Virus record (IMG/VR): IMGVR_UViG_3300011440_000022
Direction: 5' to 3' (one strand)
From: an uncultured virus (IMG/VR IMGVR_UViG_3300011440_000022)
Lineage: Duplodnaviria; Heunggongvirae; Uroviricota; Caudoviricetes
DNA: 64,000 nt
Made by a program: the position numbers and the translations under genes. The notes beneath the pieces are model-generated. The model ran no database searches. It saw only the letters and a list, made by a program, of their open reading frames with translations, and was not told the origin of the DNA. Below, in pieces: positions 1-60,971 of this stretch (its first letter is position 1; every line of letters starts with the position of its first letter).

Positions 1-1040
1 AGGGGGGTGCACATGCTTTATTTTTTCTTGAAATCAGGGGGAGGGGGTACCCCCTTGCATTACATGGCCTTGAAAATCCCAGGCAAGGTGGGGGGTACCC
101 CCTCATGTCATACATGGGGAGGGCAGGCAGTGTCAGGAGTAGGCCAGCAAGGTCAGGCCAGGGTCAGGCCAGGAGGGAGTGAGGTCAGGCAGAGGTCAGC
201 CCAGCCAGGAGGCCAGGCCTTTTCAAAAAGGGGAGGGCCGGGATTCCCGGCGGGAGGGCACGAGGTACGGGGAACGAGGGGCCAGGGAGGGCAGGCCCAA
301 AGTGGCTCCGTTGCAGCCACGAGGCAGTTTTGAAAACCCACCCAGCGGCAGGCGGTGGGTCTCGATTGGGCAGTGGGCGTGGTTGAACGGGAGGCGGGGA
401 AGGCTCCGTTGCAGGCCCAGGCCCACCAACCGAACACATGTTCCCAATCACAGCCTTGGAACTACACCAAGGGGAGGCTCCGTTGCAGCCGGATTCCAAA
501 TCGGGGTCATCGAGGGTCTCGATTCAGGGCCAACCGAGCCTCCGTTGCCACCCGAGCCAGGCCACCAACCCCAACCCTAAACCGGGTCACCCCCAGCTAC
601 ACCAGATGCGATTCAAAAGCCCCGTTTCCAAAACCCAGGAGCACCCCAGGTACCCCCTTTGCGGGAGGGCATCGGAGCGGGGAGGTCTCCCAAAATCCCA
701 GGACACCCCCGTTGCACCCAATTAGTTCGCAAACAATTAGTTCGCAAACCAGATTCTCCCAGCAAACTGAATTAGTTCGCAGGGCACACCCCCAAAACCC
801 TCTCAAGGCCTACACACGAAACTATAATTAGTTCGCAAAGTATTAGTAGTATCTATAAGGGTTTTCTCCCCCTCCGTCCGTTGCACCTACCCCGAACATA
901 CGTACGACCAGGGACATGTGCCCTGCGAACTAATTAATTCAGCCAACACACATTGCGAACTAATTCAACCCCTCAGAATCGCCCCGTTGCCCGAGCCGCA
1001 AAGACTTTGCGAACTAATTAGGCTCCGTTGCGTCAGAGAC
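1..1040. repeat. Non-coding repeat region: putative replication origin and/or genome terminus
   Basis: GGGGGTACCCCC palindromes (43-54, 91-102); (GGCT)CCGTTGC x8; AATTAGTTCGCA x4 forward (720, 735, 770, 826) and x3 reverse (924, 954, 1008); G-rich to C-rich strand switch; ORFs here look spurious. Confidence 0.7.
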
Positions 1041-1068
1041 TCAGACACCACCCAGATAGGAGACCCAG

Positions 1069-1326
1069 ATGAGCGTGTGGAAAGCAGGCGACTCCCAGGA
1101 CATCGCCGAGGGCCATTGCCGGAAGCACAGCCTTCCGTTCGATCCAAACCTCGGCCCCGAGGGAGGCCTTTTCGCCATGACCTTTGAGGCGATGAAGGTC
1201 TTGGTCAGCCACGGCCCCGAGGACTCACTCACCCGAGCCGAATACCGACTGGCGGTTTCGTTGTTGGAATACACCGCCATCCATTTGCACAATCGCTTCG
1301 CCTACGACGAGAGCGATGGGCACTAG
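1069..1326 (+). CDS. Hypothetical protein
   Basis: AGGAG RBS upstream; converges on the primase gene. Confidence 0.55.
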   Translation: MSVWKAGDSQDIAEGHCRKHSLPFDPNLGPEGGLFAMTFEAMKVLVSHGPEDSLTRAEYRLAVSLLEYTAIHLHNRFAYDESDGH

Positions 1327-3779
1327 GCCCGCATCGTCGCCACGTACGCTTCCGGCTTGGGGCCACGAGTCCCAGGCGGGGTCTCACCCACCACCCGATA
1401 GACCAGCCCACCGGCTTCCAGGGAATCGAGAGCGGCGGAAAGCTCCGTTGCCGAGCCGTGCCGACCCAGGTAAGCCCACAGTTCCTTGCGGGTGACAAAC
1501 CGGCCAGGGTGATTCCGTATCGAGGCAAGCACCTTGGAGCCAAGCTCGGTCGCCACCACTCCCGAGAGCACCGCCGACGCCGAGACCCGGCTGTAACGCT
1601 CCCAGGCGACACCCGCGGCCATGTGTTCCAACTCGATCTGATCCGCTCCGTCGCAGGCGGCGTAAATGACTGCCACCCTCATTACTTGGTCAGGGGCGCG
1701 GGCCAGGAGGTCTCCGATCCCGTCCAGCTTTGCCAGCGCCTTGAGTTGGTCGTAGAGACCGCCGCCGTTCCACAGTTCGGAGACCTCCGGCGAGCGCCGC
1801 ATTTCAAAAACCCCGGTGCGAGCTACCCCCCGAATCCTCCCCGCCAACGCCGCCAGTTCGCTGACCGGCACGGTGTCACCATCGGGCATGGAGCGCTCTG
1901 AATGCGACCAAATCCAGTGGAAGCGATTGCCAACCCCGTTGGTGGCCGATAGCTGATCGAAACCGGCCAGTAGCTCGGTGGGGGTAATTCCCCCGGTGAG
2001 ACAGACGTGATACCCGCTGGACACTGCCTTGCCGGTAGTCAGCGCCTTGGTCGAAAGCGGATCGGTGTGGTCGTAAGCCACCCGTAGCTGATGGGACATG
2101 GTCGAGGCCTGGCGACCCATCACGGTCAGAATCCGGCTGAACTCTCCCTCGGTTATGCAGAGCCGTTGATCCTCGGAGCCGCCCTTTGCCACCCAGGAGC
2201 CGGACACCTTGTCCAGCACCATCTCAGGGTCAGCCAAATCGTGCACCAGCATCTCGCCCGAGCCGTAGCCGCCACGGATATTGGAGATGGCGAAGTCAGG
2301 GTCGAGCAGGCGCATGAAGTCCCGAGCCGCCGAGGTCGCGGTTCCCTTCCGCCCGGTGGCGGTAGTCCCGACCAGCGCTGAGAACACCACCGCCGGGTGC
2401 TGCACCTTGGGCGAGACCCGGCACACCACGTTCCGACCAATCCAGGCTCCGAGCATGGGAAGGAGCGAGCCGCCGATGGCCGGAATCGAGGCCTCGGTTG
2501 CATCGACGTGCAGTTTCAAAACCTCACCGACCAGCCCGCCGCCGAACACCGCAGGCTCAAGCTCGGGAGTCTCCCCCTGCAAGTCGCCCTTGCGATACAA
2601 GCGCAGGCCCACCGGCAATTCGATCCCGCCGTCCAGATACTTCGGCGGGTGCACCACACCGAGAAACCCCCTGGTCGCATCGAACTCGTCAGGTTCGCCA
2701 TCTGGATTGGGGGGAGGCGTTTCAGAAACCGTTTTTGAATCAGCCGGATCGAGACCTCGATCCGTTTCAGTTCCAGCCAGCCCCGCCGAGACCGAGCCGA
2801 GCCAGCGATCCATTGACTCGACACCTTCGGCATCGAGGTCTTCCATCCCGTCGCCGAGCTTGTCCCGGCGCATCTCGGCGATCTGATCGTCGTACTGCCC
2901 GCCCTTGATCTTGGCGATGGCCGACTGCCACATCGTTTCGTAGTCAGCCTGGCGCTGGCGGTTCCAGCGCTTGGCCGGGTTGGGGTCAGAGTCCCGCCGC
3001 TCCCGGTACTGCTCAAGAATCTGATCGTGAGCCGCCCATCCGTCGTAGAACCCGGCTTCGACTTCCTTGGTCGCGGCCCACACCGCATTCATCGCCGACA
3101 TGCGCCGGTGCTCGCCAGCCCCGATGATCCGGTTCAGCATGTCCGCTATGACCCGGTCGAGGAAGGCTTGGCCTGCTTTCTCCGAGCCGTGCAGCCATCC
3201 CTCCCGGCTATTCAAAAACTCATCGACATCGACCCTTGAGGCCGGGTCAATCGGGGTGAGGTCTCCGGTGGGCTTGCCGTCCAGGGCCACCATCGGGACT
3301 TTCAGATCGAAGTCAGCCCGTATCGAGTGAGGCAGATCGGAAATGGGCCGGGACACCATCTCCGGTTCCAGCGAGCAGAGCACGTAGCCGCCGATCCCCT
3401 TGATGTCGCCGCCGGGGATCGGCCTCCCCCCGAACAACCCCCGGTAGTAGTGATGGTCGCCGCCCCGGTACAGCGACTTGAAGACCAGGGTGGGATTCTC
3501 GGCGAGCGCTTTCAAAAGTGCGGTGGGCACTGCCTCCGGCTCATCGATGTCGATGACCACCAGCCCCGACTTGCCGCAGTCAACCCCGACGTAGGCCAGG
3601 CCACCGGCCATCGCCCACAGCCGCTTGATTCCCGGCCCGTCGGTGGCCGAGGCCTCCCGCCAGCCAAGGGCCAGGGCCGGGGCTTTGTCGGCCTTGAGCG
3701 GGAACACCGCCGCATCGAGCAGGGTGGCAATCTCTACTGCCCTATCTCCCGTCACCGGGGCCGAGCGCGGGTCTAACAT
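1323..3779 (-). CDS. Bifunctional DNA primase/polymerase (Prim-Pol) fused to a DUF3987-like P-loop helicase domain
   Basis: N-terminal VFPL..KAP, GLVVIDID, GDHHYY, DIKGIGGYV; C-terminal Walker A-like GTTATGRKGT, GSGE, EGEF, G..NRF; winged-helix-like end. Confidence 0.8.
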   Translation of the reverse strand: MLDPRSAPVTGDRAVEIATLLDAAVFPLKADKAPALALGWREASATDGPGIKRLWAMAGGLAYVGVDCGKSGLVVIDIDEPEAVPTALLKALAENPTLVFKSLYRGGDHHYYRGLFGGRPIPGGDIKGIGGYVLCSLEPEMVSRPISDLPHSIRADFDLKVPMVALDGKPTGDLTPIDPASRVDVDEFLNSREGWLHGSEKAGQAFLDRVIADMLNRIIGAGEHRRMSAMNAVWAATKEVEAGFYDGWAAHDQILEQYRERRDSDPNPAKRWNRQRQADYETMWQSAIAKIKGGQYDDQIAEMRRDKLGDGMEDLDAEGVESMDRWLGSVSAGLAGTETDRGLDPADSKTVSETPPPNPDGEPDEFDATRGFLGVVHPPKYLDGGIELPVGLRLYRKGDLQGETPELEPAVFGGGLVGEVLKLHVDATEASIPAIGGSLLPMLGAWIGRNVVCRVSPKVQHPAVVFSALVGTTATGRKGTATSAARDFMRLLDPDFAISNIRGGYGSGEMLVHDLADPEMVLDKVSGSWVAKGGSEDQRLCITEGEFSRILTVMGRQASTMSHQLRVAYDHTDPLSTKALTTGKAVSSGYHVCLTGGITPTELLAGFDQLSATNGVGNRFHWIWSHSERSMPDGDTVPVSELAALAGRIRGVARTGVFEMRRSPEVSELWNGGGLYDQLKALAKLDGIGDLLARAPDQVMRVAVIYAACDGADQIELEHMAAGVAWERYSRVSASAVLSGVVATELGSKVLASIRNHPGRFVTRKELWAYLGRHGSATELSAALDSLEAGGLVYRVVGETPPGTRGPKPEAYVATMRA

Positions 3780-4348: not shown

Positions 4349-4451
4349 CCCGAGGCCCGGCTCCCTACCCGCCCTTTGTTTTTGAAAGCACGTACAGGAT
4401 CATGCCGACCAGCCCAGCGCAGAAGAGGATCAGACCAATGAGTTCCAAGGC

Positions 4452-6422: not shown

Positions 6423-6444
6423 AGCCACTGCCGCTAACGACGGG

Positions 6445-6477: not shown

Positions 6478-6626
6478 TACGAGCGGTGAGCATCGCTGGT
6501 GAGATGGTTGTTGGCGATAACCACCGCTTGATTGGGCGTGGTTTTGAAACCGAGGTTGTGGCTCCAACCACAATCGCATTCCAGCCACACCCCATCGTCG
6601 CTATTGAAATAGGTGAGCCAGATCAC
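6477..6626 (-). CDS. Small hypothetical protein (CxCGW motif)
   Basis: GTGA overlap with the upstream gene. Confidence 0.45.
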   Translation of the reverse strand: MIWLTYFNSDDGVWLECDCGWSHNLGFKTTPNQAVVIANNHLTSDAHRS

Positions 6627-6919
6627 GCCACTTGCCCGCAGCATCGGTAGGGGTTGTTCCAAAGCTGGACTCGGGGCGGCTGGTAGAGCGGGTCGGTCTC
6701 GGGGTTGTACCCCGGTGGCAGGATCGGAGCGATGGTTCCGACCCGAGCCTCGTCCCGCATGATGTCGAAGAGGAAGCTCACCGCCTCATCTTCACTTTCA
6801 AAAGGGTTGTCCGAGGGGATGCGCCCGAGAACCGAGAGCACGGTGAACCGGCGATGGTTGCCCGAGGCCAGGAGCCGGATGACTTGCCGGGCCTCACTTT
6901 CAAAAAGCTCGACGCTCAT
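6623..6919 (-). CDS. Hypothetical protein
   Basis: ATG 6919 (MSVELFESE); good codon usage. Confidence 0.55.
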   Translation of the reverse strand: MSVELFESEARQVIRLLASGNHRRFTVLSVLGRIPSDNPFESEDEAVSFLFDIMRDEARVGTIAPILPPGYNPETDPLYQPPRVQLWNNPYRCCGQVA

Positions 6920-7916: not shown

Positions 7917-7971
7917 GCACCGAGCCGCCAACCATGTGAATCGAGGATGCCCGGTGCAGTTTTGAAAGTTA

Positions 7972-8223: not shown

Positions 8224-9510
8224 ATGAAACGCTCGCTCGCTGTGGCAACCCTGGTGTTGGTTGTCCTCGCAGTATCAATCCCCGTACTTGGTGACACCCC
8301 CGAGCACAAGATTCTGATTTGCCATCTCCCGCCAGGGAATCCCGAGAACGGCCAGGCCATCGAGATAGACCGCAACGCTTGGGAGCAAGGTGGGCCTCCC
8401 GGTCATCACGCCGAGGGCAATCACGGCGGCGATTTTGAAATTAAAGATGACGATGATTTGAAACGGTGCGAGGGCAAGGAAGAGACCACCACGACCGAGA
8501 AAGACACCACGACCACCAAGCGGGAAACCACCACCACTGACAAAGACACCACCACAACCACCAAGCCAGAGACCACGACCACCGACAAAGAGACCACGAC
8601 CACCGACACGACCACGACCACGACAACTACGACGACGACGACGACGACGATGCCGACGACGACGACGACCGAGCCGCCGACACCGACTCAGTTCTGCGTT
8701 GATGTCAACAACGCTCCGCAAGCCGAGTTGGAAGAGTTGGGCGGCATCTCCCCGGCCCTGGCTCTGCTCATCATCGCCAACCGGCCCTACGAATCAGTGC
8801 AGGATTTAGGCGACCTATTCGGGCCGGGAGTCCTGGCCGCGATCTTGCTGGTCAATCCGACAACCGGAGCTTTCGCATCCGACGCTTGCCTCACCCCGGT
8901 CACGGTCACGACCAGCACAACGACCAGCACCAGCACTACGACCACGACCACTGCGCCGCCCACCACCCCGCCAACGCTCCAAGCCGGGAACGTGACCGCA
9001 GTGTGCGTGAGCAATATCCCGTTCTTCGCTTACGAGATTCTGAACTTCCCCGAGGGCACCCTGCTCTCAGAGATTCGTTTTGAAAACCCCGAGCCGGGCG
9101 GGGCCGACTTGGTCTACGTCAACCAACCGCTCACCGGGCAAGTGCTCTGGCCGGGAGCCAGCGCCGACCCCGAGGACTGGCCCGGTTGGATTTTGAATGA
9201 GGACGGGATTTGGGTCGAAGGCGACGACGGGTTCTTGTGGGCCAGGGAAGCGGTGCAAGTCACCTTCACCATCAACCCCTCCGTGACCGTGACCGTGACC
9301 TACCCACCAGCCTCAGCGATTTGCGCCGGGCCGGTGAACCCGGCCATCACCACCACGCCGGGATCGACTGCGCCGGATGGAGTGACCACCACCCGAGCCG
9401 GGGTGTTGCCCTTCACCGGAAGCGAGCTTCTGGCGCTCGGGTATCTGGCCGGAGCCACCTTCCTGCTCGGTCTGATCTTGCTGGTCTCGGCCCGCAAGCA
9501 GGAGTCATAG
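8224..9510 (+). CDS. Secreted, LPxTG-anchored Thr-rich surface protein with a ComEA-like helix-hairpin-helix domain
   Basis: Signal peptide; KILICHLPPGNPEN Cys/His module; Thr-rich stalks; VDVNNAPQAELEELGGISPALALLIIANRPYESVQDL (HhH); LPFTG + TM + RK tail. Confidence 0.8.
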   Translation: MKRSLAVATLVLVVLAVSIPVLGDTPEHKILICHLPPGNPENGQAIEIDRNAWEQGGPPGHHAEGNHGGDFEIKDDDDLKRCEGKEETTTTEKDTTTTKRETTTTDKDTTTTTKPETTTTDKETTTTDTTTTTTTTTTTTTTMPTTTTTEPPTPTQFCVDVNNAPQAELEELGGISPALALLIIANRPYESVQDLGDLFGPGVLAAILLVNPTTGAFASDACLTPVTVTTSTTTSTSTTTTTTAPPTTPPTLQAGNVTAVCVSNIPFFAYEILNFPEGTLLSEIRFENPEPGGADLVYVNQPLTGQVLWPGASADPEDWPGWILNEDGIWVEGDDGFLWAREAVQVTFTINPSVTVTVTYPPASAICAGPVNPAITTTPGSTAPDGVTTTRAGVLPFTGSELLALGYLAGATFLLGLILLVSARKQES

Positions 9511-10723: not shown

Positions 10724-11100
10724 GCATGGAAACCCACAAGCACTTCGGGATCAATTGGTGGGTTGACATCAACACCAGCCGAATCCGAGTCAGTATTGAA
10801 CCGGAGCGGTGGGCTGAGTACGGCGAGTTCCAGTGGGTCTCGGTTGAGACCACCTATGCCGGTGGTGCCCTCTTCGTCGGCCACGACTCCGAGACTGGCA
10901 AGTACCACATTTTTGAAATGGGTGGAACGTGGATCGATCCGTGGGACAAAGAGCACGCCGGTCTCTACGAGTCACCGCTCGATGCTCTCAAAGCCGCCGC
11001 TCGGATTTTGAAAGACGACCACATCGAGGGGATGAAGTGGGAAGTCCTCATCGATGAGGCGATGGCCGCAGCCGAGAGAGCCGAGGCCGAGGCCGAGTGA
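10720..11100 (+). CDS. Hypothetical protein
   Basis: ATGA-coupled; ends before the terminator. Confidence 0.65.
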   Translation: MSMETHKHFGINWWVDINTSRIRVSIEPERWAEYGEFQWVSVETTYAGGALFVGHDSETGKYHIFEMGGTWIDPWDKEHAGLYESPLDALKAAARILKDDHIEGMKWEVLIDEAMAAAERAEAEAE

Positions 11101-12079: not shown

Positions 12080-12161
12080 AGGCCAACCCTACAGTTTTGA
12101 AAGACGGGGTGTGGGGTAAGATTCCTCAGAGACCAAGAACTCTTCGGAGTTCTTGGTCTCG

Positions 12162-12961: not shown

Positions 12962-13115
12962 AAATCACGCTTCCCAAGATGCAGGCTACTTGCTTTCGAT
13001 CTTCGCGATCTTGTATGGTCTCGGGTAGAGCGACTGAGCGCTTAGTGCGACGTACCTCTTTTCTTGTGACCTAGACCGCGTCGGAAGTACCGCTAGGAAG
13101 GAAAGAGGTTTCCGC

Positions 13116-15104: not shown

Positions 15105-15131
15105 CCCAAGCCATAGTGAAGGAGATTTCAA

Positions 15132-17280: not shown

Positions 17281-17282
17281 AA

Positions 17283-49308: not shown

Positions 49309-49742
49309 AGCAATTCCTTTCGCTTTTCGGATCGAAGAGTCTTCAGTCTCGCGACCCTCTCTTTCTGATGGGCTATCTGTGTCTCGGTCTCGGCTTCGAT
49401 CCGGCGTATCTCGGTCACTTTCAAATTGCGTTGTCCCTCGATCAACTCCAAATGCCCTGCTCCCGATGTGACCAGCGCTTTTACATCGAGGTCAGCTACC
49501 GCATCACGCAATTCAGAAACCTTGGCCCGGCCTTCGGCAGTCATCCGAGCCAGATCGAGTTCTGACTCGTGGATCAGTGCACTCAGTTTCGAGGTCGGGT
49601 CAATTTCAAAATCGAGTTTTGAATCCTGAACTTCAGGCGCAGGCTCATTAACTCTTTTCCCCCAATCCTTCGGAGCTTTGAACCCGAAGCCATCGGCGAC
49701 GATGACCGACTCGTGTTTTTCAAAATAGAGGGTCTGGCTCAC
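49305..49742 (-). CDS. Hypothetical coiled-coil protein (head operon)
   Basis: GTGA overlap at its start and ATGA-type overlap with the protease gene. Confidence 0.6.
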   Translation of the reverse strand: MSQTLYFEKHESVIVADGFGFKAPKDWGKRVNEPAPEVQDSKLDFEIDPTSKLSALIHESELDLARMTAEGRAKVSELRDAVADLDVKALVTSGAGHLELIEGQRNLKVTEIRRIEAETETQIAHQKERVARLKTLRSEKRKELL

Positions 49743-51766
49743 ACGAGGAAGCTCCCTTCGGTCTGCCCTGAACCCCGGCGGCGACGAAGATACTCGCTGG
49801 CATCCCGGTACCCCTGCACCAGCCGGGAGCGGTTGTCCTTGAGTTTCTCAACCACGGATCGCTTGCTGGCGATGTTCCGAGCCTTCTCAGAAGTGACATT
49901 GCTGATGTCCATGCGAACCTTGGCAAGCTGGTTCCTCAGCTTGAGCGTGGGATCGAGGTTCTCGTCCATGCTCGTGTAAACCGCACTGGCCTGGTCTTTG
50001 AGCCGGTTGGCCTGTGCAGTGAGTTGAGCGGCTTTCTCCGGCGAGGCATACGCCGCCTTTTCCAAGAGGGCGTTTGCCTCTTCCTGAAAATCACTGGCCT
50101 TTCCCGCCATCTGATCGGCCCGCCGTTGAATCGCATCGGGGTCGGGTTTGATGAGGGAAAGCTGTGCCTGGATTTGGTCACGAGAGGCGCGCAGAGCGTC
50201 CAGCTTCCGGTCGTAGCCATCACGGAGCCGGTCAACCTCACCTTCGGCCTTGTCGATCTGAGAATCGGCCAGCTTGAGTTCGTCGTATCGGGCGTTCCGA
50301 AGCCATTCATCCTTCGCCCCGAGCATGTCCCTGATGTCGTCCATCTCGCCCTGAATGTCGGCTCGCAGCAACGGGTCTTCGGTGGCCCTCAGTTTCGACT
50401 CCAACTCTTCCAGCCGTCGCCGTGCACCCGCTTCCAACTGAGCGGCAAGCTCGACCTTTTGCTGAAGATTCATCGTCTTCCACTGAGAAGCCCGGCTCTC
50501 AGATTGGCCCTTGCGCCGGGCCAGGGCTGACTTGCGAGCCGCTTCCCGACGCTGCTCTATCTCGGCATCGGATAGCTCTCGGGTGGTCTTGCGATCCTCT
50601 CGGGCGTAGGGAGTGCGGGAATCGCCGGTGGGCTTCCGCTTCAGCTTGTAGCGCTTGGTGGCCGGGAACGCCGGGTACCGACTGCGAACCTCTTTTGAAA
50701 TTCGATCCCCGTAGGGGTCATCGTCGGTAGCGGCCAAGAGCGGAGCAGCACTACCCCGAGTCCCGACATGACAAGCCACTCCGAACCCACCCATCCGCTG
50801 GCAGAGATTGGTGCAATAGCCCTTGGCCCTCGGCCCGAGGTACTTGACGAGATGTCGGTGACATCGAGTCCATGAGCCGGGGGTGCCCCATCTGATCTTC
50901 GTCAGCCCGCCTTGGCCGGTCGTCCAATAGAGCCGGAGCCGCTCGGTTCCCTTGAGACCTTCCGGCGATTTGATGACGGCGAGAAGCGTCTGCATTTCCA
51001 AATTACCGAGATGATCCTCGATGACATCGAGAGCCGCCGAAGAGCGAATCTTCCGCTGCTTCACTTCCTTGGGGATGAACTCGACTCCCTTGGTCGCTTC
51101 ATCCACTTGCTCGATGACGCTCCCTTGGAGACCTTCCTCGGTGAGCACGACGATGGGCGGCGGATCGATAGAGCGGAGCGGGATGAGCCACTGCTCGTCC
51201 TCGTACCACTTGCCGTCATGTCGCCGGTAGAGAGTGGGGCCGGGAGCCAGGGCAATCAATTCCAAGACTGCGTTCTTGTCGAGTTCGTCCACGATGGCGA
51301 CGAGCTTGGTGTTCGACGGCAGTTTTGAAATCGCCGCCGCCGCCAGCACCGGATCGGGGTCAGTGGTAATCCAGGCCAGGGGGAAGACCGGACGGAAAAG
51401 CACCGAGTCACAGCCTTCCGAGAAGGCACGAGCTACGAAGGCGACATCGTCGCCCGAGAGCGGGACGGTGGCTCCCCACATCTCTTCGTTCTCGACCCAC
51501 TGGCCGTCCTCATACATGAGTCCGTCCCTGGTCAACCCGATAACCAGCGAGTCGGTGCCTGCCGCGATCAGCCCTTCGGGAAGCGTTGGGTTATCCCCAA
51601 GCAGGGCTTTTAGAGTCCGGCCCCGCTCGTTTTTCAAAACACGCCTGGCCCACACCGCCGCATCGGTCTCGTGCCACTCGACAAGCTCAAGCTCATCGAG
51701 CACCGCAGCCTCATTGAGATGCAGTGAATCGATGGACGATGGCCGGGGATAGGTACGACTACTCAC
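49739..51766 (-). CDS. Head-associated protein with a YW..G.G..KIRWG.PG...RC...L.KY...GYC module and long coiled coil
   Basis: Probable GTG start at 51766 overlapping the upstream stop; module recognised from actinophage head proteins. Confidence 0.65.
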   Translation of the reverse strand: MSSRTYPRPSSIDSLHLNEAAVLDELELVEWHETDAAVWARRVLKNERGRTLKALLGDNPTLPEGLIAAGTDSLVIGLTRDGLMYEDGQWVENEEMWGATVPLSGDDVAFVARAFSEGCDSVLFRPVFPLAWITTDPDPVLAAAAISKLPSNTKLVAIVDELDKNAVLELIALAPGPTLYRRHDGKWYEDEQWLIPLRSIDPPPIVVLTEEGLQGSVIEQVDEATKGVEFIPKEVKQRKIRSSAALDVIEDHLGNLEMQTLLAVIKSPEGLKGTERLRLYWTTGQGGLTKIRWGTPGSWTRCHRHLVKYLGPRAKGYCTNLCQRMGGFGVACHVGTRGSAAPLLAATDDDPYGDRISKEVRSRYPAFPATKRYKLKRKPTGDSRTPYAREDRKTTRELSDAEIEQRREAARKSALARRKGQSESRASQWKTMNLQQKVELAAQLEAGARRRLEELESKLRATEDPLLRADIQGEMDDIRDMLGAKDEWLRNARYDELKLADSQIDKAEGEVDRLRDGYDRKLDALRASRDQIQAQLSLIKPDPDAIQRRADQMAGKASDFQEEANALLEKAAYASPEKAAQLTAQANRLKDQASAVYTSMDENLDPTLKLRNQLAKVRMDISNVTSEKARNIASKRSVVEKLKDNRSRLVQGYRDASEYLRRRRGSGQTEGSFLV

Positions 51767-52553
51767 GCCAGGGGAACTCCATCTCCAAGCCGAGCGCTCG
51801 TGACCGGCGCTCGACGTACCACTGGAACTCGGGATGGGACTCGGCGAACTCGACTGCGGTTGGAAGGTCTCGGACTGAGGCGATGGTCGGCACAGTGAGC
51901 GAAGCGGTGATGGTCTCGGTGAGCAGAGGCTTGAGAGCGTCAGCCTCACTCTCGCCGGAGTACCGAACTTGGACTCTGAAATCATCGACCTCAGACACCG
52001 GCATCGACGTGATCTTCACGGACTTGCCCGATTGGTCAGCCGGGTCGTACAGATCGAGAGCGTTGTCTTCCACGCTGACGATGTCGTAGTCACCGATTGC
52101 TTCGATGTCGGTGAGCATGAACCACTGCCCGGTGTACCGGAGATAGCTAGTCGTGGGCGAGTCGAGCATCAGAGTGGCGACATCACCGTTGTCATCTACG
52201 AGGGCGTTCAGGGACATGCTGTTTTCTCCATCTAGGAAATCCTGCGCCACGGACACCGGCCAGGGGTAGGCGCTGATCCCCATTCTGACCGGATCGTATT
52301 GGCTGTAAGGACGGACAATGATTTTGAATCCATTATTGGTTTCACCCTTGAAATAGCCATAGATCGAGTCATCAATGCTTGTGAGGTAGACCTCTTTGTA
52401 CGCATCACCAAGGTCACGTTCTCCGGCATAGGAATAGTCGTTGCCTGCTTCCTCTTTCCACGAGAATTCCTTGAGAAGTTCCAAACTGATCGTTCCATCG
52501 ACGCTTCCGTGTGCCTCCAACGTGGCCGGATGATGGGGGAAGAACTTCTTCAT
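51759..52553 (-). CDS. Hypothetical protein (head operon)
   Basis: ATGA-coupled to the giant upstream gene; C-terminal WYVERRSRALG..FPW. Confidence 0.65.
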   Translation of the reverse strand: MKKFFPHHPATLEAHGSVDGTISLELLKEFSWKEEAGNDYSYAGERDLGDAYKEVYLTSIDDSIYGYFKGETNNGFKIIVRPYSQYDPVRMGISAYPWPVSVAQDFLDGENSMSLNALVDDNGDVATLMLDSPTTSYLRYTGQWFMLTDIEAIGDYDIVSVEDNALDLYDPADQSGKSVKITSMPVSEVDDFRVQVRYSGESEADALKPLLTETITASLTVPTIASVRDLPTAVEFAESHPEFQWYVERRSRALGLEMEFPWRE

Positions 52554-55500
52554 ACCGCTGCTCCGGCCTCACCACTGACGGCGATGGTGGGAAGCTGCGC
52601 CTTCACTTCCGGCGGCAACAAGTCCGTGACCTTCACGATGTTTCCTGCCTCGGTCATGCCGATATTTTGAAACGCATCGTCGTTCATGTTGAAGGGAATG
52701 TCTGAGCTACGAATGATTTCCTCGACCGACCGGCCACCAATCTCAGTGATGCCCTTGGCCTTCAGTTTGGCGAGAATGTCCTGTCGCTGACTTGCGCTTA
52801 CGAATATGTAGGCAACTTGTCGAGGGTCTAGTTTCTGCTTCTGCATGTATTCAAACATGCCGCCTTGAGTCAAAAATGAGTTGTTAACGGGCCGATAACC
52901 CCATGAATCACCCGTGGTAGCTGAGGTGTATATATCGAGCGACTGATTGATGAGGTCTCCGGCGAACATGAACACGCCCTCATCATCGGTTTTTGCCGAG
53001 TAGGTCTTGCCGCTGAGGTACACCCGACTCCCGGCTCCCGAGGACATGTCGCTTTCCTTGGATTGCCCGCCAGCGTAAATTCCCACCGAGAAACGCTCGG
53101 CTGCGCCCATGAGACCCCGATTCGGGCTAGAGAGAATCTCAGCGACAGTGGTGGCGTCACCGCCGCCGTACAGCCGGTGGCGGTACCAAAGGTTCCCTTG
53201 CTTGGCTGTGATGGCCTTCGCCACTTCCTTACTCAGCATCGGCACGAAGCGGCCATCTTCCAAGAGATGGATTTCCAAATCGTCAATTGTGACCTTTCGC
53301 CCGAGCGTGGCTTCTAGGTCTTTGTTCAATCGGTCGAAGACCTTCACCATGCCGACATCGTTGGGCGACAACTCTTGAACGCCACCCTCCCGGTGGGCGA
53401 ATTGCGGGGAGTGGGTCTTGTAGAGCTTGCCAAGGGCGAAGCGAGCGATCTGCTCATCGGTGGCCGGGCCTTGCGCTTCGGGCGGAATCCCGACTGCCTC
53501 CATCGCCCGACTCACCGCGGCCTGGAACTCATCGGGGTTCTCGGCCACAGCTTCGGGCACCCGAATCGTGACCATGCCCGACTCGTTCCAGCGACGTATC
53601 TCCCCGTATGAAGACCCCTTGCCCGCTGATGTTCCGCTGACTGACGAGGGAACAGCATTCATACGGACGTAGCTTCCATCGGCAAACTTGCGCTCGATAC
53701 GCCTGCCCATCTCAGCCGTGCTCGATGCTCCCGAGCCAGCACCGCCTTTGATGCTCTTCCCCGAGAAGATTTTTGCGCCGGTCTCGTCCATCGAGATAGC
53801 CCCGAGCGACGGGTCTTTGTCGAATCCAATGATGCCGTTGTCGTGCCACCCCGCCGCCACTGCCTTGTCGGTGAGCTTGACCGTCGAGGTCGGGGTCGAA
53901 GTAGCAATGGCGTGGGCGTCCCACTCGTAGCGCCTGATCGACGGCATGGATCGTTCCTGCACGTCCATTGCCCCGGTCGTTCCATCGGATGCGGCCAGGG
54001 TGAGTCGGTAGATCGGAATGCCCTTGCCGTCTTCCCCGATGTGAACCGGATCAGCAACCAGCCGAACATTGGGCACATTGCCATTGCTTGGCTTGAGTTG
54101 GTCGGACATCACCGACTTGCGAACGGAGATGACATCGCCCTTTTTCAAATCACTGGCAAGAGAGTTATCAAGATCGACCCACTTCCCGTAGGTCACGTCC
54201 TTGGAAGCAGTGAGCAAGATGTCAGACGTGACCTCGGCCCTGTCCTCCGGCATTCTGAAATGGAATTCGACAAACCGATTATTGGTCTCTGAATCTCTCG
54301 CCATCTGAGCACGCACTTGCATGTCTTCGATGTATTCGGCATCCCCGAAAGCAAACTCAAGACCGGTACCAGCGTCGGTCTCGTCACGTTGGGCGAAAAT
54401 TTCCAAACCGGCATCAGTGATTGACCGCACCGGCAGTTTGTCGGGCGTTTCATGGATCGCCCCAAGGACACCGGTAATGGGTGGTGGGTCGGGAGCAGTT
54501 TCATCACCGGAGACATCGACTGCATCGGCGGGCTTGGGCAAGTTAGTCAGCGAGCTATCGGGGATCGGAACAGCATGTTCCATGCCTTCGACGGTGAACC
54601 CGAACAGAGAAGTCCAATGACCGCTCAGAGCTTCCTCGTGGGAAAACTCGGCGGGGTCGTAGGCAACCAGGGCGGCGGGCTTCTCTGACGAGAGACCCGG
54701 CGTGAAGGCTGCGGCGTTCGGTGACGTGTCATCGATGACCGCCACTTTGGACACCTTGCCGTTGGCGACCATGTTCCCGAGGAACTCGCCTTGCTCCCCA
54801 TGCCAGCCACTCTTGACATGGCTATCAGGCAAGCTCACCACCCGGCCATCGTTGTTGATGTAGAAGAACATGTCCGTCTTGCGAACCCCGGCATCGGTCG
54901 AGAGCTTGCCCTCACCCACCGCTTTGTAAATCACCGTGCCATTGGGAAGCTGGACGATGTTCTCGGCTGACGTGACCTTGCTGACGTACTCAATCGGGTC
55001 AGGCCCGTTCAACTCGGCGTAATGATCGACCCACAATCGGGAAACAACCCGGTACTCGTAGTCGCTCTTGGCGAAGTTGTAGACCCGCACGTAGTTCGGC
55101 TTTTTGAAAACGTCGTCTTCCATGACGATGACTGCGGCCTGGTCATCGGTAGTTCGCACTCGCATTCCAACCTTGGGAGCGAACCCGTCCTTGGTCAGCG
55201 TGCGATACGGCGAGCCGGAAAGCCAGTTGTCCCGCTCCCATTGCGGCTGTGCCAGGGTCTTGCCGTCAGGGGAGACATACTTGATGGCAGCATCGGAGAT
55301 TTGTGTCTCCGTGAAATCAATCGCCATCTCGACCGAAGCCTTGGCGCTTTCGGGTAGTCCCTCTTCGGTAGTCGCCGAGGGAACCGGAGCACCATCGACA
55401 TCTTTGAGCAAGATGGTCTTGCTCAAGGTCTTCCGAATGACCTTGCCCTCATCGGTTGTGATAGCAAGCAGGGGAGCGACCTTGGCCTGCTTGCCATCGG

Positions 55501-58500
55501 GCGGGCCAACCCAATTGATTGTTCCCTCAGTGATCTTGTCACCCGGCCCGAAGGCTCGGACGTACTGACCAATGCGGGGATCGTTCCCGTCTTTGAGTTT
55601 CAAGGGCCAGAAGGGAGCATCGGTAATGGCGACATCTTCGACCGGAACCGGAACCGGAGTGCTCGGCTCGTCTATCGAAACGAGAAGATTGGCGTTGATA
55701 ATTCGGGACTTGCCGTCAGCGCCGTAAATCCTGACTGCCTGTGGGAATTGAGCGAGAGCATCATCTGTGCCCTCCCACACCTTGCCGGTGAAACCATCGG
55801 GTGCGGCAACCCATGATCCCGGTGTGAAGTCCTTGCGGGTTTTGAAACTCGCCTTGGAGAGAATCGTGTCCTTCGACTTCTTGACCGCCTCCGACTTCTC
55901 AACCACGGTGGGCTGAAGCTGCGGAATGATGTTCTTGCCGATGTTCTTCCGTAGCTCACGCTGGCGGGAACTAGTGATCGTGGTTTTTGCCCCGTTGATG
56001 GTGAACTCGGGGAGGATGGTCGCCGCATAATTGTTGTAGCCCGAGGCATGGTGTCCGACAAGGACACCTTCGTAGATGATGTCGCCATTCTTTTTGAATG
56101 TGGGAATGGTTTGCGGGATCGAAGCATCGAGAGTTGTAGCCGTCTGCAATCTGAAGCTGGTTTGACTGGCCTGCGTGCTGATCGCCAGGGTCTTGTTCTC
56201 CCCGGTCGGGCTTATCAGATAGAGATTCCCGATGATGGTCTTGTCGCCGTAGTAGCTCTTTTTCACATCGAAGGCGGCTGACTTCACGTAAAAGAGACCG
56301 GTCGAACTGTGCTCTGGATTGACGGGATTTGAAAGGATGACGCTCTGCCCCACCCACTCGTTGAGCGAAGTCTCGTTGTGATGTGTCCCGGCATCTTCTA
56401 TCGGAGGAAGGCCTTGCAAGGACGCGACGAAGTCTTCGTAGATCGAGTCCAGACCCACCGACTCGCCAATTTGAACGTGGGCATTGACTCCGGTTGTGGG
56501 ATCGGTGTAAGTCGGTGACACCCCGAGAGCCGCCAAGTCAGCCGGGGTGTAGGGAGTCGTATTCCAGGCCGTGGGCTGGTCAAGCTCTTCCGCCAAGTCA
56601 GTGTCTTCCGGCTCACCGCCAGAAAACTCGGTGCTGGTTGCGGTGTCATCGGCGGTGATGAGGTCATCCCGAAGCATCATCCCGAGGGTCTGATCCTGGG
56701 TGAAGGGATCGGGAATGTGCCACTGAGCCTTGATTTCAACGTCTTCGTTTTCCCACTCTGGCCTAGAGATGAAGCGCTCTTTGCCATCGAGCATCGAGGT
56801 CATCGCAATCGAGCTTTCCGAGATACCGTCGATCCGATAGACCACGTCATGCTGTGTGCCCGGCTTCTCAGGGTCGGGGTAGCGGTGAAAGAGGAAGTCA
56901 CCCGCCTTGGCATCCGCGAAAATGTCCTTGCTCACCAGCGCTTGGGGTTGCAGTGCCAGCGGTGGCTTGTCTGACCCCTCGTTGGAAATGGTCAGATTGA
57001 ACAGATTCCACAGTGAGTGCCCGACAAGCTGATTGTTCGTCTGAGCGACCTCGTACTGCGTATGCAGTTGATTGAAAGACTCCGTTGGCTCAACCACACG
57101 AGGGGAGTAGTGGGAACCGGGAACGGTTGTGTCCATGTAGACGGTGTGGTTGTCGGGATCGACCGCCGAGACCATTTGCAAATTCCCGGTCATGTCCACG
57201 CCGGTCACACGGAACAGCCCAATGCGCCCGCCACCGGGATAAGCAACAACGGTGTCACCAAGAACCGGGCCGAGTTCAGGATCGGAATTCTGCCATAGCG
57301 TTGCTAGTTCGGCTTCCATCTTGTTTATCAAATTCGATGGAGTGAAATTGATCGTGCCGGGTTCCCACTGATTTGAAATCGGATTCCAAAACATCTGAGA
57401 AGACACGTTGCCCTTGCCCACCGTTATCAACTTCGGCGGCGTGTACGAGGCAAACGGGTCAGCCACTCCGTACTTTTCCAAGAGGTAGTCCCGACGAGCA
57501 ATCAAGATGTCCGCTACGTCGGGGTCGAGGCCAGCACCGGAGACCATGTTCTTGATCTGTGAGGGACGAATCGCAGCGACTCGCTGCGCTCCCATCTTCT
57601 GCTCGTTCAGAGTGATCCCGGCGAAGACTTGGGACGAGGAAGGGTTGATACTTGAATTGAGGTAGCTATCGACCTCACCAACTACGCGCCCAAACTGGCT
57701 CCCCTTCGGAGCGCCTTGCGCCCGGTACTGAAGTGAGCCACCGGTGTCGATCCGATACGGCACCCCGTCCACGACCATGATGTTGTCGTGGGTCATACCG
57801 GCTACGTCCCAATTGGCGAGCCAGGCATCGACCACCATGTTTTCGCGAATCTGGCGAATCACATCGGGATCATCGAGCGCCTTGCTCAGTGGAACGACCG
57901 TGCCCTCGGGAGTGGCGCTTTTCAAAATCTTGGAAGCCACCGTCTGATGCTGGCCGAAGTAAAGGTCTGGCACCGGAACCCCGGCCACCTTGTAAAGCTC
58001 GTTCGCCAGCATCTCATTGGCACCGTGATCGAGGCTCTTGGTGCGTTTGATGTAAAACTGCGTGCCGGGTGCGATGTCCTCGTGTTCCAGGGCCAATCGA
58101 GCCGCCTCTTGGACGGCGGGATCAGTCGTGACCCACACTTTCAAATCAGCGGCATTCCTGGCTTCGTCCCACGCCGGGTTGACCCCTTGCTGATAACCGG
58201 AGCCACCGTTGCCGTAGATGACCTCTTGGTTCCCAGCCTTGTCGGTGTACGTCGCCACGAAATACTGAGGGGTGCCCATCGCACTTTTGAAAGCAAGTGA
58301 TTGGTTCGGGTAGTCGATGAAGCTGAGGTCATCGCCGAGCGACTCGGCAACTTGAGTGACGTAGTCACTCGTGGGATCGACGGCCAGTTTCTCCGTTTCA
58401 GTTGTGGTATAAAACCCGCCAGGATTGGAGCCTCCCTGTGCTCCGCTCTTGATCCAGTTGTCCATTTCCATGTCGGACTGTGGGTCGGGCGTGGAATGAA

Positions 58501-58870: not shown

Positions 58871-60971
58871 CGGGCGCGCCTCCCACACTCGCTCCTGCTC
58901 CGGCACCCTTCGGCGGCACGCCGTAAGAAGTAGCGAAGTCATTGGCCTCTTTCAAAACGTCGAGGATGGGGAGGTCGATTTCCTGCACTGGCATATCGAG
59001 GTCTTCCAGCCCGCCTTCCGCTGCATCCAGACCGACCACCGCTGCCCACCGATGGTGGCCGTCCACCACGTAATCATCTGAGGTCGTGAAAATCGATGAC
59101 TCACGGATGACGTTGCGGGCAGTCTCGGTATCGCCTTCCAGCCACTTCATCATCCCGGCGACCTTGGCCCCGACTAGCTCGTTCTGAGAGGCCTTGAGAT
59201 GCGAAGCCGGTCGCCTCTTCTCAGTGACCGAGATGCCCTTGTCCCGAAGGTATTGAGCAAAGGCAGGCCCGATGTCAACTTCGCCATCCTTGTTCTTGGG
59301 GAGCGCATCGGCGGGAGACCCCTCGACCGGGATACCGGAAAGCTGTGGCATCTGGATTCTCGGGATGCCCTTCGACTCAGCGCAGAAGAGGTTGGTGTCG
59401 GGAACCGAGACCAAGCAGAGGTCGTAGTTGGGAGCATCTTCGCCCGCAGCCTTGGCCTCGTTAGCGATTCGGGCAAGCTCATCAAGCAAGGTCGAGACTT
59501 GATCGACGCTCTGTAGCTCGACGTACTTCCCCTCGTGCAAAGCAGTAACCGCCTCCATCACGTCCGAGGTTTGGAGTGGATTCTCTCTCGACCCGACCTC
59601 ACCAGCTTCGACCGAAATCTCTTCGCCGATCTGATTGGTATTGGCCCCGGCAATAGCGGGAGTCAGCCCCTCATCGGTGCCCTCTCGAAAGCTCGGGAGA
59701 ATGTCGGTGGTCTTGCCCTGGTAGCTGCCGTTGTCGGTACGAATCGTGACTCGGCCAGGATCATTCTCAGCAAATTCAAAATCCTCAATCACACCGGGAA
59801 TGTCACCAGGCAAAATGATTTCGTCACCCACCATGAGGTTCCCAACCTCACGACTCTCGTTGTAGGCCCGAGGCTCGGCGGGCGAAGCCGGTGTCCGAGG
59901 CCGATCCAATCCACGAGCCGTAAATTCCTCTTGGAGATACTCGGCATCCAGGCCAAGCGATTCGACCAACTGCTCATCAACGTCGCCAATGGCGGCATCG
60001 ACCGTGCGTTGGTAAGTGTCACGAAGCTCATCATCACTGAGATTACGGAAGGGACGATCTTCACTGCGACGTGGGATCGAACGACGATCTAGCTCTTCAC
60101 GGAGCAGCGTGTTTTCCAATTCCACATCGAGCATCTCGCCTTCAGGAAGATCACCGATCAGTTGGTCAACCGACTCGGCGTAGCGAGTCTGAAGATCAGA
60201 GTCGGATAGATTTTCAAAAGGCCTGCCCTCGGGCACCACTTCCGGTGCTTCCGGCCCCGGCTGTCCCGCCCGAACCCAATCATCGAGGTCAAGTACCTGC
60301 TCGCCCCGGCTCTCGGCATCGAGTCGATACCGCTGAAATCCCTCAGCAACCGACTTGGGAACGCCAGTCGAAAATGCCTCTTCCAACCCTTCGGTCTCAA
60401 GCAGATAGGAAGGCTCGGGAGGTTGATGAACTCGATTTCGATATGCCTCCATCCGACGCAGCCGCTCGGCGGTCGGATCAGTCCGGCCCTCAAACTCCTG
60501 CATCTCCCGAGAACTTGGAATCTCCGGCACCGACCGGATGAAGTCACCGCTGTCTCGTCGCCCAAAGTCCAGATCGGCCTTGACCTCGGGAGCAGTCGCT
60601 ACTTGGTTCGGCTTCACCGTGACCGTACGCCCATCGGAAAGCTCAACGTCGATGTCGGGATTGCCTTTAGTTCTACCGGGCCGAATCTCTTTGACCTTGC
60701 CCCTGGTGCCGTCCGGCCCATCACCAAAATCAAAAAGCTGAATGAGACCCATCACTTCGATGAAGCGTCCGTCCCGGCCTCGGGGATGAAGGTCGGGATT
60801 CCAAACGGCGGCGGTCAGCCCATGCACCAGCACGTAATTGACCTCCCGAAGATCAATCCCCTCGTTCAGAGCTTGGGCCTCCAAACCAGCAACGATTTCC
60901 AAATTTGGCTCGGGATAGGAAAGGGCTTCCTCCCACTCGGCATAGAGGTCGAGCACTCGTTCGTTTGTCAT
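58857..60971 (-). CDS. Putative internal head protein with WNPDLHPRG tag and C-terminal ParB/Srx-like domain
   Basis: LKASQNEL...KV..IFT..D.YVVDGHHRWAA; two internal RPF.NLSD..L repeats. Confidence 0.75.
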   Translation of the reverse strand: MTNERVLDLYAEWEEALSYPEPNLEIVAGLEAQALNEGIDLREVNYVLVHGLTAAVWNPDLHPRGRDGRFIEVMGLIQLFDFGDGPDGTRGKVKEIRPGRTKGNPDIDVELSDGRTVTVKPNQVATAPEVKADLDFGRRDSGDFIRSVPEIPSSREMQEFEGRTDPTAERLRRMEAYRNRVHQPPEPSYLLETEGLEEAFSTGVPKSVAEGFQRYRLDAESRGEQVLDLDDWVRAGQPGPEAPEVVPEGRPFENLSDSDLQTRYAESVDQLIGDLPEGEMLDVELENTLLREELDRRSIPRRSEDRPFRNLSDDELRDTYQRTVDAAIGDVDEQLVESLGLDAEYLQEEFTARGLDRPRTPASPAEPRAYNESREVGNLMVGDEIILPGDIPGVIEDFEFAENDPGRVTIRTDNGSYQGKTTDILPSFREGTDEGLTPAIAGANTNQIGEEISVEAGEVGSRENPLQTSDVMEAVTALHEGKYVELQSVDQVSTLLDELARIANEAKAAGEDAPNYDLCLVSVPDTNLFCAESKGIPRIQMPQLSGIPVEGSPADALPKNKDGEVDIGPAFAQYLRDKGISVTEKRRPASHLKASQNELVGAKVAGMMKWLEGDTETARNVIRESSIFTTSDDYVVDGHHRWAAVVGLDAAEGGLEDLDMPVQEIDLPILDVLKEANDFATSYGVPPKGAGAGASVGGAPGGAG

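Follow-up and report, generated by a model that had tools for sequence, protein, structure and literature searches.

The window analyzed in this study is the whole 64,000-nucleotide stretch of DNA taken from IMG/VR record IMGVR_UViG_3300011440_000022, which belongs to an uncultured tailed phage with a genome of approximately 92 kb. The feature in question is a short AT-rich word, 5′-WTTCAAAW-3′, that was found at 87 sites in the window, compared with 5.0 ± 1.9 in order-1 Markov simulations and 3.7 under an order-3 model. The sites have a density of 1.36/kb, occur in both orientations, and lie inside genes (72 of the 87 in called genes); the enrichment, with open reading frames (ORFs) included, is at least 15-fold genome-wide (87 versus approximately 4–5). 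The reversed control word, WAAACTTW, had no copies in the window. The feature is real, strongly selected, and so far undescribed, and no description of WTTCAAAW or of any similarly abundant phage 8-mer was found in the open-access literature searched.

Gene content of the window and relatives of the phage

Genes were annotated using PHROGs and Pfam, and the gene coordinates used for the statistics came from our own simple codon-score caller with two manual corrections. A gene for a PrimPol and DUF3987 (D5-like) primase-helicase lies at 1323..3779 on the minus strand (PF09250 Prim-Pol, E = 1.5e-9). The PHROGs and Pfam annotation also placed the capsid gene at 13116-15068 on the plus strand, the major tail protein gene on the same strand within the 13116-17280 capsid/tail block, a family A DNA polymerase gene at 22034-23773, and a resolvase-like protein gene at 24158-24580. 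Other genes in the window encode an SNF2 helicase, a sliding clamp, a Cas4-like (PD-(D/E)XK) exonuclease, a Sak4-like ATPase, and a DUF669 protein, while a minus-strand block carries the protease, large virion-module proteins of 703, 748, 2130, and 704 amino acids (aa), and the portal. Beyond the window, a near-identical virus record (G001; 99.8% identity to 35,455-64,000 and 99.2% to 33,282-35,140) supplies 10.8 kb of tail genes past the window end, and a further contig (L058) supplies 7.1 kb with a MuF-Zeta fusion protein, the large terminase, and a Fic protein.

The best deposited match for the capsid protein was Actinomycetia phage DSL-LC01, at a top identity of 39%, followed by large Microbacterium, Arthrobacter, and Gordonia phages. 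A megablast search of 8 kb of the window against 50,697 phage records gave no match. In single-protein scans of viral contigs, the capsid protein found no relative and the 703-aa protein found near-identical strains only. Near-identical DNA was present in sequencing runs of 24 studies, and the 17 runs that contained at least half of the sampled words came from freshwater sediment, sediment, and groundwater. The Ltp, DUF6011, and DUF6192-like proteins hint at an actinobacterial host. Two conserved proteins without known function matched only "hypothetical" and DUF6192 entries in the ESM Atlas.

Definition of the word and its enrichment

The initial annotation of this DNA had described the feature as a pseudo-palindrome, TTT(C/G)AAA, and had estimated by eye about 70 copies against a chance expectation of 2 to 3. 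Both figures were close to the exact values, as 74 TTTSAAA copies were counted, with all 27 of its example coordinates among them, and the zero-order expectation was 2.9. Shuffling the window with dinucleotides preserved gave 5.56 ± 2.25 copies, with 12 as the largest value and 0 of 100 shuffles reaching 74. A synonymous-codon shuffle within genes gave 21.4 ± 2.6 copies (maximum 28 in 300 runs), and a codon-order shuffle gave 14.3 ± 1.7; both of these codon nulls leave the 13 sites outside called genes fixed. When only coding sites were considered, 61 copies were observed against approximately 8 under the synonymous shuffle and approximately 1 under the codon-order shuffle, and the enrichment thus persists under codon- and dinucleotide-preserving nulls alike. 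Words of the TTTAAAA type, which had been reported as rare, are missing altogether (0 copies each of TTTAAAA and TTTTAAA), and other easily coded AT-rich words are at expectation (AAACAAA, 3 versus 3.8; TTTCTTT, 6 versus 4.9). The signal is therefore specific and does not represent a general preference for A and T.

The bases that flank the 74 oriented sites define the word further. The base 3′ of TTTCAAA was A in 53 sites, T in 19, G in 2, and C in 0, and the base 5′ of it was T in 25, C in 24, A in 16, and G in 9. In terms of palindromy, the 3′ flank was W in 72 of 74 sites and the 5′ flank was W in 41 of 74, around an asymmetric core. This core, TTCAAA, has 99 copies in the window, in which the flank pairs are T.A in 53, T.T in 19, A.A in 15, and other combinations in the remaining 12. 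Because of these flank-base counts, the best description of the word is the asymmetric 8-mer 5′-WTTCAAAW-3′, and the apparent choice between C and G at the central position reflects the two strands of a single word. The pseudo-palindrome with a degenerate centre is replaced by this definition, and the extension to TTTTSAAAA, which had been described as frequent, applies to 20 of the 74 sites. Seventy-two of the TTTSAAA sites lie within the 87 WTTCAAAW sites, and the two that fall outside the 8-mer definition, at 44035..44041 and 45396..45402 on the plus strand, are TTTCAAA followed by G.

Several other words also deviate from expectation. CATCGA (181 versus 56), TTCCAA/TTGGAA (76 versus 30), and TTTCCAAA (11 versus 1.8) are enriched, and CTTCAAA is depleted (1 versus 6.8 expected).

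Position, orientation, and spacing of the sites

Matches to WTTCAAAW on either strand span positions 221..60219 of the window and are divided between the plus strand (40 sites) and the minus strand (47 sites). The plus-strand sites are located at 221..228, 611..618, 1802..1809 (in the PrimPol-helicase gene), 2514..2521, 3210..3217, 3510..3517, 6796..6803, 6898..6905, 12956..12963, 15126..15133 (between the ribosome-binding site and the start codon of the major tail gene), 16643..16650, 17085..17092, 18711..18718, 19430..19437, 20341..20348, 21570..21577, 22250..22257, 22950..22957 (in the DNA polymerase gene), 23034..23041, 24034..24041, 26807..26814, 27442..27449, 27555..27562, 32291..32298, 33689..33696, 34844..34851, 38807..38814 (in the clamp gene), 38919..38926, 40309..40316, 42852..42859, 49419..49426, 49604..49611, 49718..49725, 51632..51639, 54143..54150, 57920..57927, 58139..58146, 58950..58957, 59774..59781, and 60212..60219. 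Those on the minus strand are located at 328..335, 2733..2740, 4380..4387, 6542..6549, 7960..7967, 8433..8440, 8456..8463, 9078..9085, 9191..9198, 10911..10918, 11006..11013, 12095..12102, 17275..17282, 17650..17657, 19572..19579, 19680..19687, 23229..23236, 23562..23569, 27215..27222, 28384..28391, 28632..28639, 32940..32947, 34255..34262, 35408..35415 (within an HNH endonuclease insertion), 35868..35875, 37461..37468, 37476..37483, 39273..39280, 39356..39363, 39736..39743, 39988..39995, 42694..42701, 47344..47351, 47427..47434, 48057..48064, 49044..49051, 49617..49624, 50693..50700, 51323..51330, 52322..52329, 52665..52672 (in the 2130-aa gene), 55102..55109, 55840..55847, 56092..56099, 56327..56334, 57371..57378, and 58285..58292.

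The order of the two orientations along the window is random (41 runs versus 44.2 expected, z = -0.7), and within genes the word lies on the sense strand in 38 cases and on the template strand in 34. No regional bias of the sites or of their orientation was found along the window, and the sites showed no polarity around the minimum of the cumulative GC skew at 24–28 kb. This neutrality toward strand and transcription rules out a signal at the RNA or peptide level. Called genes cover 84.5% of the window and hold 61 of the 74 TTTSAAA sites, and there is therefore no preference for intergenic DNA.

All five stop-free reading frames are used (F-E, F-Q, F-K, S-K/N, and L-K), in agreement with the several frames noted in the initial annotation. 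The word occupies 60 of the 143 positions at which TTTSAAA can be reached by synonymous change, including 12 of 16 F-E contexts and 14 of 22 F-K contexts. TTT and AAA had been described as codons that this genome avoids; they are minor codons (TTT is 23% of Phe and AAA is 26% of Lys) and are not strongly avoided. Taken together with the strand neutrality and with the conservation among strains given below, the use of frames and of reachable positions bears out the proposal that selection acts on the DNA and not on the protein.

Three gaps had been pointed out, and these correspond to site-free stretches at 12,963-15,125, 24,041-26,806, and 28,640-32,290. The capsid, major tail, portal, and AAA_5 ATPase genes and the gene at 24648-25553 (6.5 kb together) contain no sites, where approximately 8.8 would be expected at 1.36/kb. 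The replication genes contain 2–3.7 sites per kb, and the 2130-aa gene contains 10 sites. These differences in density between genes indicate that sites are placed where protein or codon constraint permits. The second largest of the gaps, 24041-26806, overlaps the GC-skew minimum and holds the gene for a DUF6192-like protein of 301 aa, which is without sites; this stretch is a possible origin region.

In terms of spacing, gaps of 24–80 bp were scarce when the window was pooled with a sister phage (2 versus 9.8 expected, in a range that was picked post hoc), and a preferred spacing of approximately 100 bp was borderline, with one 32-bp bin holding 13 gaps (scan-corrected P = 0.05). Among the close pairs of the window phage, those 83–113 bp apart, 9 of 11 have the same orientation. 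The pair at 19572 and 19680, which are 108 bp apart in the gene for a small basic protein, keeps its position in both phages (window 19572-19687; sister contig L007 15607-15721).

Conservation among strains and in a sister phage

Four strain-level relatives (L002–L005) have a DNA identity of 96.4–98.6% to the window phage. One of these, L004, has diverged by 2.0% and retains 28 of 28 window sites, where 86.8% would be expected per site (P = 0.019); the others retain 7 of 8 (L002), 2 of 2 (L003), and 6 of 6 (L005). Contigs from four further runs show 5 differences over 20 kb, none of which falls in a site.

The sister phage (L007; on a contig of 93,817 bp) has a capsid protein that is 67% identical to that of the window phage, and it carries the same word with the same flank rule. 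The density is also similar, with 64 sites in 48.7 kb of the sister (1.31/kb) and 104 sites in 81.9 kb of the window phage (1.27/kb). Across 12,242 aligned coding bases, at 61% nucleotide identity, a shared position was found for only 3 of the 14 sites in the window and 3 of the 13 in the sister. These comprise the pair at 19572 and 19680 and the site at 22250, where the sister has the word on the opposite strand. Chance sharing is 3% per site, which gives P = 0.008 for at least 3 of 14. Sites are thus protected in the short term, and in the long term it is the density that is kept and not the positions.

Avoidance of palindromic hexamers

Of the palindromic hexamers with an expectation of at least 4 in the window, 31 of 51 are absent, compared with 39 of 1974 non-palindromic hexamers. 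Examples of purged sequences are GGATCC (0 versus 33.9 expected), CCCGGG (0 versus 36.2), and TTCGAA (0 versus 20). The absent palindromic hexamers number 26 of 37 in the sister phage, 13 of 25 in L010, and 12 of 31 in L013, and little purging was seen in L038, L045, and L040, where 0–3 of approximately 30 are absent. Both word-bearing lineages, that of the window phage and the GTATAC lineage presented in the following section, show extreme avoidance of palindromic hexamers, and purging of this kind shows how strongly these genomes are shaped by restriction systems.

The palindromes that are spared in the window are mainly of the form A-NNNN-T, such as ATCGAT (41 copies), AGGCCT (27), and AGCGCT (27). 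The sister phage has no copy of ATCGAT or AGGCCT, and the avoidance profile therefore shifts fast between relatives.

A second word in related phages

Four related contigs (L008, L010, L036, and L046; capsid 41–43% identical, 67% GC) lack WTTCAAAW. These contain instead the hexamer GTATAC with C/G flanks, at 14 copies in 11.2 kb of L008, 19 in 17.1 kb of L010, 4 in 5.2 kb of L036, and 14 in 13.7 kb of L046. The density is 1.0–1.25/kb in L008, L010, and L046, and 0.5 copies would be expected in L010. The sites are kept between relatives: 12 of 12 are shared by L008 and L010 at 4.1% divergence, and 8 of 10 by L046 and L010 at 10.8% divergence, where 50% would be expected.

In a quick maximum-likelihood tree of capsid proteins, the window phage and its sister form a deep pair, and the GTATAC group lies nested in another part of the tree, beside L038. 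The z value of the best word was 45 in the window, 24 in the sister, 24–27 in L008, L010, and L046, and 8 in L036, which is short (5.2 kb), whereas the branches around the GTATAC group gave 7–13. GTATAC is a second, independent case of a hyper-abundant word in the same phage group. No comparable word was found in six cultured relatives (DSL-LC01, Pumpernickel, Mimi, Mareelih, GMA2, and Phendrix). Two further candidates were rejected as coding effects because they are strand-biased: TCAAGGA in L047 and L048 occurs on one strand only (14:0 and 15:0), and CGGAAACA in phage Mimi has a strand bias of 13:4.

Cellular genomes and candidate reading proteins

The word was searched for in 401 evenly drawn Actinomycetota genomes and in three metagenome-assembled genomes (MAGs G002–G004), and none of them showed enrichment at a phage-like density. 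The result for the 401 genomes includes 14 that are flagged as unpublished (G124, G005, G178, G395, G230, G052, G243, G022, G340, G152, G086, G272, G322, and G347). The highest ratio to the reversed control among the 401 genomes, as picked out, was approximately 5, at a density of at most 0.3/kb, and many high-GC genomes of 5–10 Mb contain at most approximately 12 copies of TTTCAAAW (6 in G003, 3 in G028, 8 in G058, and 12 in G299). Equal enrichment of a host chromosome through general composition, which had been named as grounds for refutation, was seen in none of the candidate hosts sampled. MAG G002, the source of the GTATAC-bearing contig L046, contains 209 copies of GTATAC and 121 of TTTSAAA in 8.1 Mb, and MAGs G003 and G004 contain 61 and 35 copies of GTATAC in 5.9 Mb each. 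One contig of the GTATAC lineage was binned in a Thermomicrobiales MAG, the genome of which is not enriched.

The binding proteins and the modification or protection system that the initial annotation had suggested did not find support. Pfam searches detected no helix-turn-helix protein. The 704-aa protein (58857-60971) had been called ParB-like; this label is based on a DGHHR motif, and no Pfam family supported it even at E ≤ 1. Pfam scans of the 78 window ORFs, the 10.8-kb and 7.1-kb extensions, the sister's equivalent of the approximately 10 kb that was not seen in the window phage, and, at E ≤ 0.5, pieces of the 2130-aa protein gave neither a DNA methyltransferase nor a base-modifying enzyme. 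In L010 and L046 (21 ORFs), the sole methyltransferase-like match was a weak, generic Methyltransf_11 hit in the structural module of L010. The PHROGs and Pfam annotation contained no match to a repressor or integrase family, and no RecBCD/AddAB-type enzyme is encoded by the phage. The interpretation offered in the initial annotation is accordingly supported in part.

The 703-aa and 85-aa proteins of the window phage are shared with the GTATAC loci only. They were dropped as candidate readers of the word because they resemble ejected metalloprotease-type virion proteins, and the 703-aa protein (46299-48410) contains two HExxH motifs.

Discussion

Our data suggest that WTTCAAAW may be a phage-specific "address word" that is read throughout the genome by a trans-acting factor in replication, recombination, or packaging. 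This reading is tentative, and we hold it at somewhat less than an even chance. The word and its enrichment, neutrality toward strand and frame, pattern of conservation, and lineage specificity are established; the existence of a reading protein, its origin in the phage, and the process that it serves are inferred. A sequence-reading factor, most likely phage-encoded, would recognize the dispersed WTTCAAAW sites and act on the whole chromosome at a scale of approximately 1 kb, probably in replication, recombination, or packaging rather than in the control of single genes. Because the word is AT-rich, it is almost absent from high-GC cellular DNA, so that the approximately 100 copies carried by a 92-kb genome would set phage DNA apart from all other DNA in the cell. 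Selection would hold the density and not the positions, and the sites would drift to where the protein or codon constraint is weakest. In one version of this reading, the sites would be starting or loading sites of the replisome that are read by the PrimPol-helicase; in another, they would be docking sites for an abundant architectural or packaging protein. The two versions were weighed about equally within their class.

Several points weigh against an address word. The absence of the word from host DNA rests on the sampled genomes. Among the Pfam and PHROGs matches, there is no sequence-specific DNA-binding protein whose occurrence follows that of the word, and approximately 10 kb of the approximately 92-kb genome was seen only by way of the sister phage. 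The PrimPol-helicase is 38% identical between the window phage and its sister, compared with 65% for the polymerase, and is the least conserved of the replication proteins. The spacing of the sites is near random (coefficient of variation 0.85 versus 0.98 ± 0.11, P = 0.11). Primases usually need only approximately 3 nucleotides, and an asymmetric site of 8 bp is short for a classical DNA-binding regulator. GTATAC with its symmetric flanks looks like a site for a dimer, and the two lineages may therefore not share a mechanism. A resemblance to the RuvC cleavage consensus, (A/T)TT↓(G/C), is also present on both strands of the word; recognition of four bases would not call for a word of eight.

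The sharpest form of the address-word reading is that the PrimPol-helicase starts lagging-strand primers only at WTTTGAAW/WTTCAAAW. The word is strand-symmetric, and 0.65 sites/kb per strand fits the scale of Okazaki fragments. The gene at 1323-3779 encodes a PrimPol and DUF3987 protein, and long template words are known to be read by primases of this type: the phage PrimPol-helicase of NrS-1 was described as recognizing, on a single strand, an AT-rich 8-nucleotide template word, 5′-TTTGGTTA-3′ (PMC8718748), with which the complement of WTTCAAAW shares the initial TTTG. According to the same source, later work found a preference of this enzyme for GTG, and no genome-wide enrichment of the NrS-1 word is reported. 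The low identity of the PrimPol between the two phages that share the word also counts against such priming, as does the lack of polarity around the GC-skew minimum, and the preference for C/G flanks at GTATAC would not be expected of a primase. We regard primase sites as unlikely. A Chi-like role, in which the word would be a single-stranded DNA signal for a helicase-nuclease (of the host RecBCD/AdnAB type or of the phage) that switches degradation to recombination and so protects phage DNA, appears improbable. It agrees with an asymmetric 8-mer in both orientations across the genome and with the Cas4-like exonuclease, the Sak4-like ATPase, and the SNF2 helicase of the phage. Chi is described as strongly over-represented in some lambdoid phages and is discussed there as a mark of self and non-self, but the same account has phages with their own recombinases lacking Chi (PMC3784561), and the window phage encodes recombination genes. 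A Chi sequence of the host should moreover be enriched in the host, which no sampled genome shows. The sites have neither orientation polarity nor regional concentration, the GTATAC palindrome with its symmetric flanks points to recognition of duplex DNA by a dimer, and a RecBCD/AddAB-type enzyme of the phage is missing. It is also rather improbable that the word is the target of a DNA methyltransferase, of the host or an unrecognized one of the phage, and is created or kept by methylation-dependent repair, recombination, or protection, as proposed for highly iterated palindromes (HIPs). The pattern is like that reported for HIP1, with 15- to 300-fold over-representation inside ORFs and conservation by selection (PMC5861425), and alternate words are reported to replace HIP1 in other lineages (PMC4390886), as GTATAC replaces WTTCAAAW. 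GTATAC is also a palindrome that is approximately 40-fold enriched in a palindrome-purging genome, where it would be tolerated most easily if it were protected. On the other hand, WTTCAAAW is no palindrome, the searches of the window, extensions, sister regions, and pieces of the 2130-aa protein gave no DNA methyltransferase family, the Actinomycetota genomes and MAGs show no enrichment, and the extreme avoidance of palindromes suggests that the DNA is unmodified.

Two further explanations were considered. One is that the word has no function and is a by-product of the purging of restriction sites (for example, TTCGAA changed to TTCAAA or TTTGAA), of mutation bias, or of codon or dipeptide usage, and this is very improbable. 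TTCGAA is indeed missing from the window, a single transition separates TTTCAAAA from the palindrome TTTCGAAA, and more than half of the tested palindromic hexamers have been lost. The excess of TTCAAA, approximately 75 copies (99 versus 24), is nevertheless much greater than the approximately 20 TTCGAA copies lost, and the W flanks are left unexplained. F-E is written TTT-GAA-A in 12 of 16 cases and not as the GC-richer escape TTC-GAG, shuffling synonymous codons or codon order does not remove the enrichment, strains retain the sites, AAACAAA and TTTCTTT are not enriched, and GTATAC has no such neighbouring palindrome. The other is that a modified palindrome was misread in sequencing or assembly, for example TTTCGAAA as TTTCAAAA or TTTTGAAA. 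The complete absence of TTCGAA and the random-looking orientation of the sites would fit such misreading, the probability of which we consider negligible. An artefact is excluded because sequence and orientation agree across independent assemblies, as the same sites in the same orientation are present in L002–L005, in G001, and in the contigs of the four further runs; misreads would also put TGA stops in approximately one sixth of the sites, and the long ORFs are intact.

Among known systems, the word behaves in its pattern most like HIP1 and its alternates, by analogy. HIP1 (GCGATCGC) is also an 8-bp word that is over-represented tens-fold and lies in genes in all frames, it is replaced in other lineages, and its function is described as unsettled (PMC5861425, PMC4390886); its sites are reported to be conserved by selection rather than replenished (PMC5861425). 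The HIPs presented in these sources differ in being palindromic, GC-rich, and chromosomal, with cognate methyltransferases, whereas WTTCAAAW is asymmetric, AT-rich, and carried by a phage in which no methyltransferase was found. The palindromic character is shared by the GTATAC lineage only, and no sampled cellular genome has the WTTCAAAW enrichment. Chi is likewise a short asymmetric word that has been proposed as a mark of self and that phages can accumulate, but it is the word of the host, oriented, and in lambdoid phages concentrated from the origin to the packaging site (PMC3784561), whereas WTTCAAAW is without orientation or regional bias.

The uptake signal sequences and DNA uptake sequences (USS/DUS) of the Pasteurellaceae and Neisseriaceae occur approximately once per kb, in both orientations, and in coding sequence, with density conserved rather than positions, and WTTCAAAW resembles them in its density, its two orientations, and its location inside genes. 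USS/DUS are found in naturally competent bacteria with a sequence-specific uptake receptor, where biased DNA uptake maintains them, and no counterpart of this is known in phages; WTTCAAAW lies in a phage, where no uptake machinery takes part.

The 17-bp dyad repeats of Cluster O mycobacteriophages are dispersed in an actinophage genome, with many of them intragenic and not tied to promoters, and are of unknown function; they are predicted to bind a dimeric protein (PMC4351075). The repeats of Clusters O and A described there are 13–17 bp in length with 24–37 copies and are either dyads (O) or oriented with transcription (A). In contrast, WTTCAAAW is 8 bp, non-dyad, and present at 104 copies in 81.9 kb, compared with approximately 17 bp, 7-bp inverted arms, and 30–40 copies for repeats of the Cluster O type, and unlike the Cluster A stoperators it ignores the direction of transcription, in a phage whose annotation matched no immunity repressor or integrase family. 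WTTCAAAW thus belongs to none of the HIP, USS/DUS, Chi, stoperator, or Cluster O families.

The hyper-abundant short words of cellular chromosomes, namely Chi, USS/DUS, and HIP1, have each led to the discovery of a machine that handles DNA across the genome. Known dispersed repeats in phages are 13–18 bp in length, number in the tens of copies, and are mostly unexplained. A word of 8 bp that exceeds 100 copies, imposes itself on the encoded proteins, holds its density as its positions change, and gives way to a different word in another branch would indicate that the phage encodes a system for reading its chromosome as a whole. It is possible, though on balance doubtful, that GC-rich soil and sediment phages repeatedly evolve private AT-rich address words at approximately one per kb, which would let a phage-encoded machine tell phage DNA from host DNA. 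The machine in question might be a primase-helicase with priming confined to the word, or else a nuclease or packaging system by which word-bearing DNA is spared or selected. Such a system would be a virus-autonomous counterpart of Chi, USS, and HIP1, and its word would switch when the specificity of the reader changes, with WTTCAAAW in one lineage and GTATAC in another. The word can serve as a sequence signature for spotting fragments of such phages in metagenomes and as an oligonucleotide pull-down handle for finding the reader.

Other features of the window phage

The layout of the genome is odd. The capsid and major tail genes are on the plus strand among the replication genes (13116-17280), and far from both, in one long minus-strand block (46299-63333; G001 1-10801), are the genes for the protease, the portal, the tape measure, and the tail fibres. 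The virion-module proteins encoded at 46299-48410 (-) and 58857-60971 (-) share the N-terminal motif WNPDLHPRG-DGRFIE, and this shared start may be a capsid-packaging signal. The gene for the MuF-Zeta-toxin fusion adjoins the terminase gene in both the window phage and its sister (L058 1-2493; L052 17993-20029), and a gene for a small Fic/DOC protein is present in the window phage as well (L058 5027-5467).

Two HNH endonuclease genes are located at 20711-21239 and 35141-35454. Strain-level relatives L004 and G001 lack them at exactly those places, and the HNH genes are therefore mobile insertions.

A non-coding region at 720-1019, beside the PrimPol-helicase gene, contains seven copies of the 12-mer TGCGAACTAATT, with four in one orientation and three in the other, and the 8-mer AACTAATT has 7 copies there versus 0.3 expected. 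This repeat cluster is a candidate replication origin or operator cluster.

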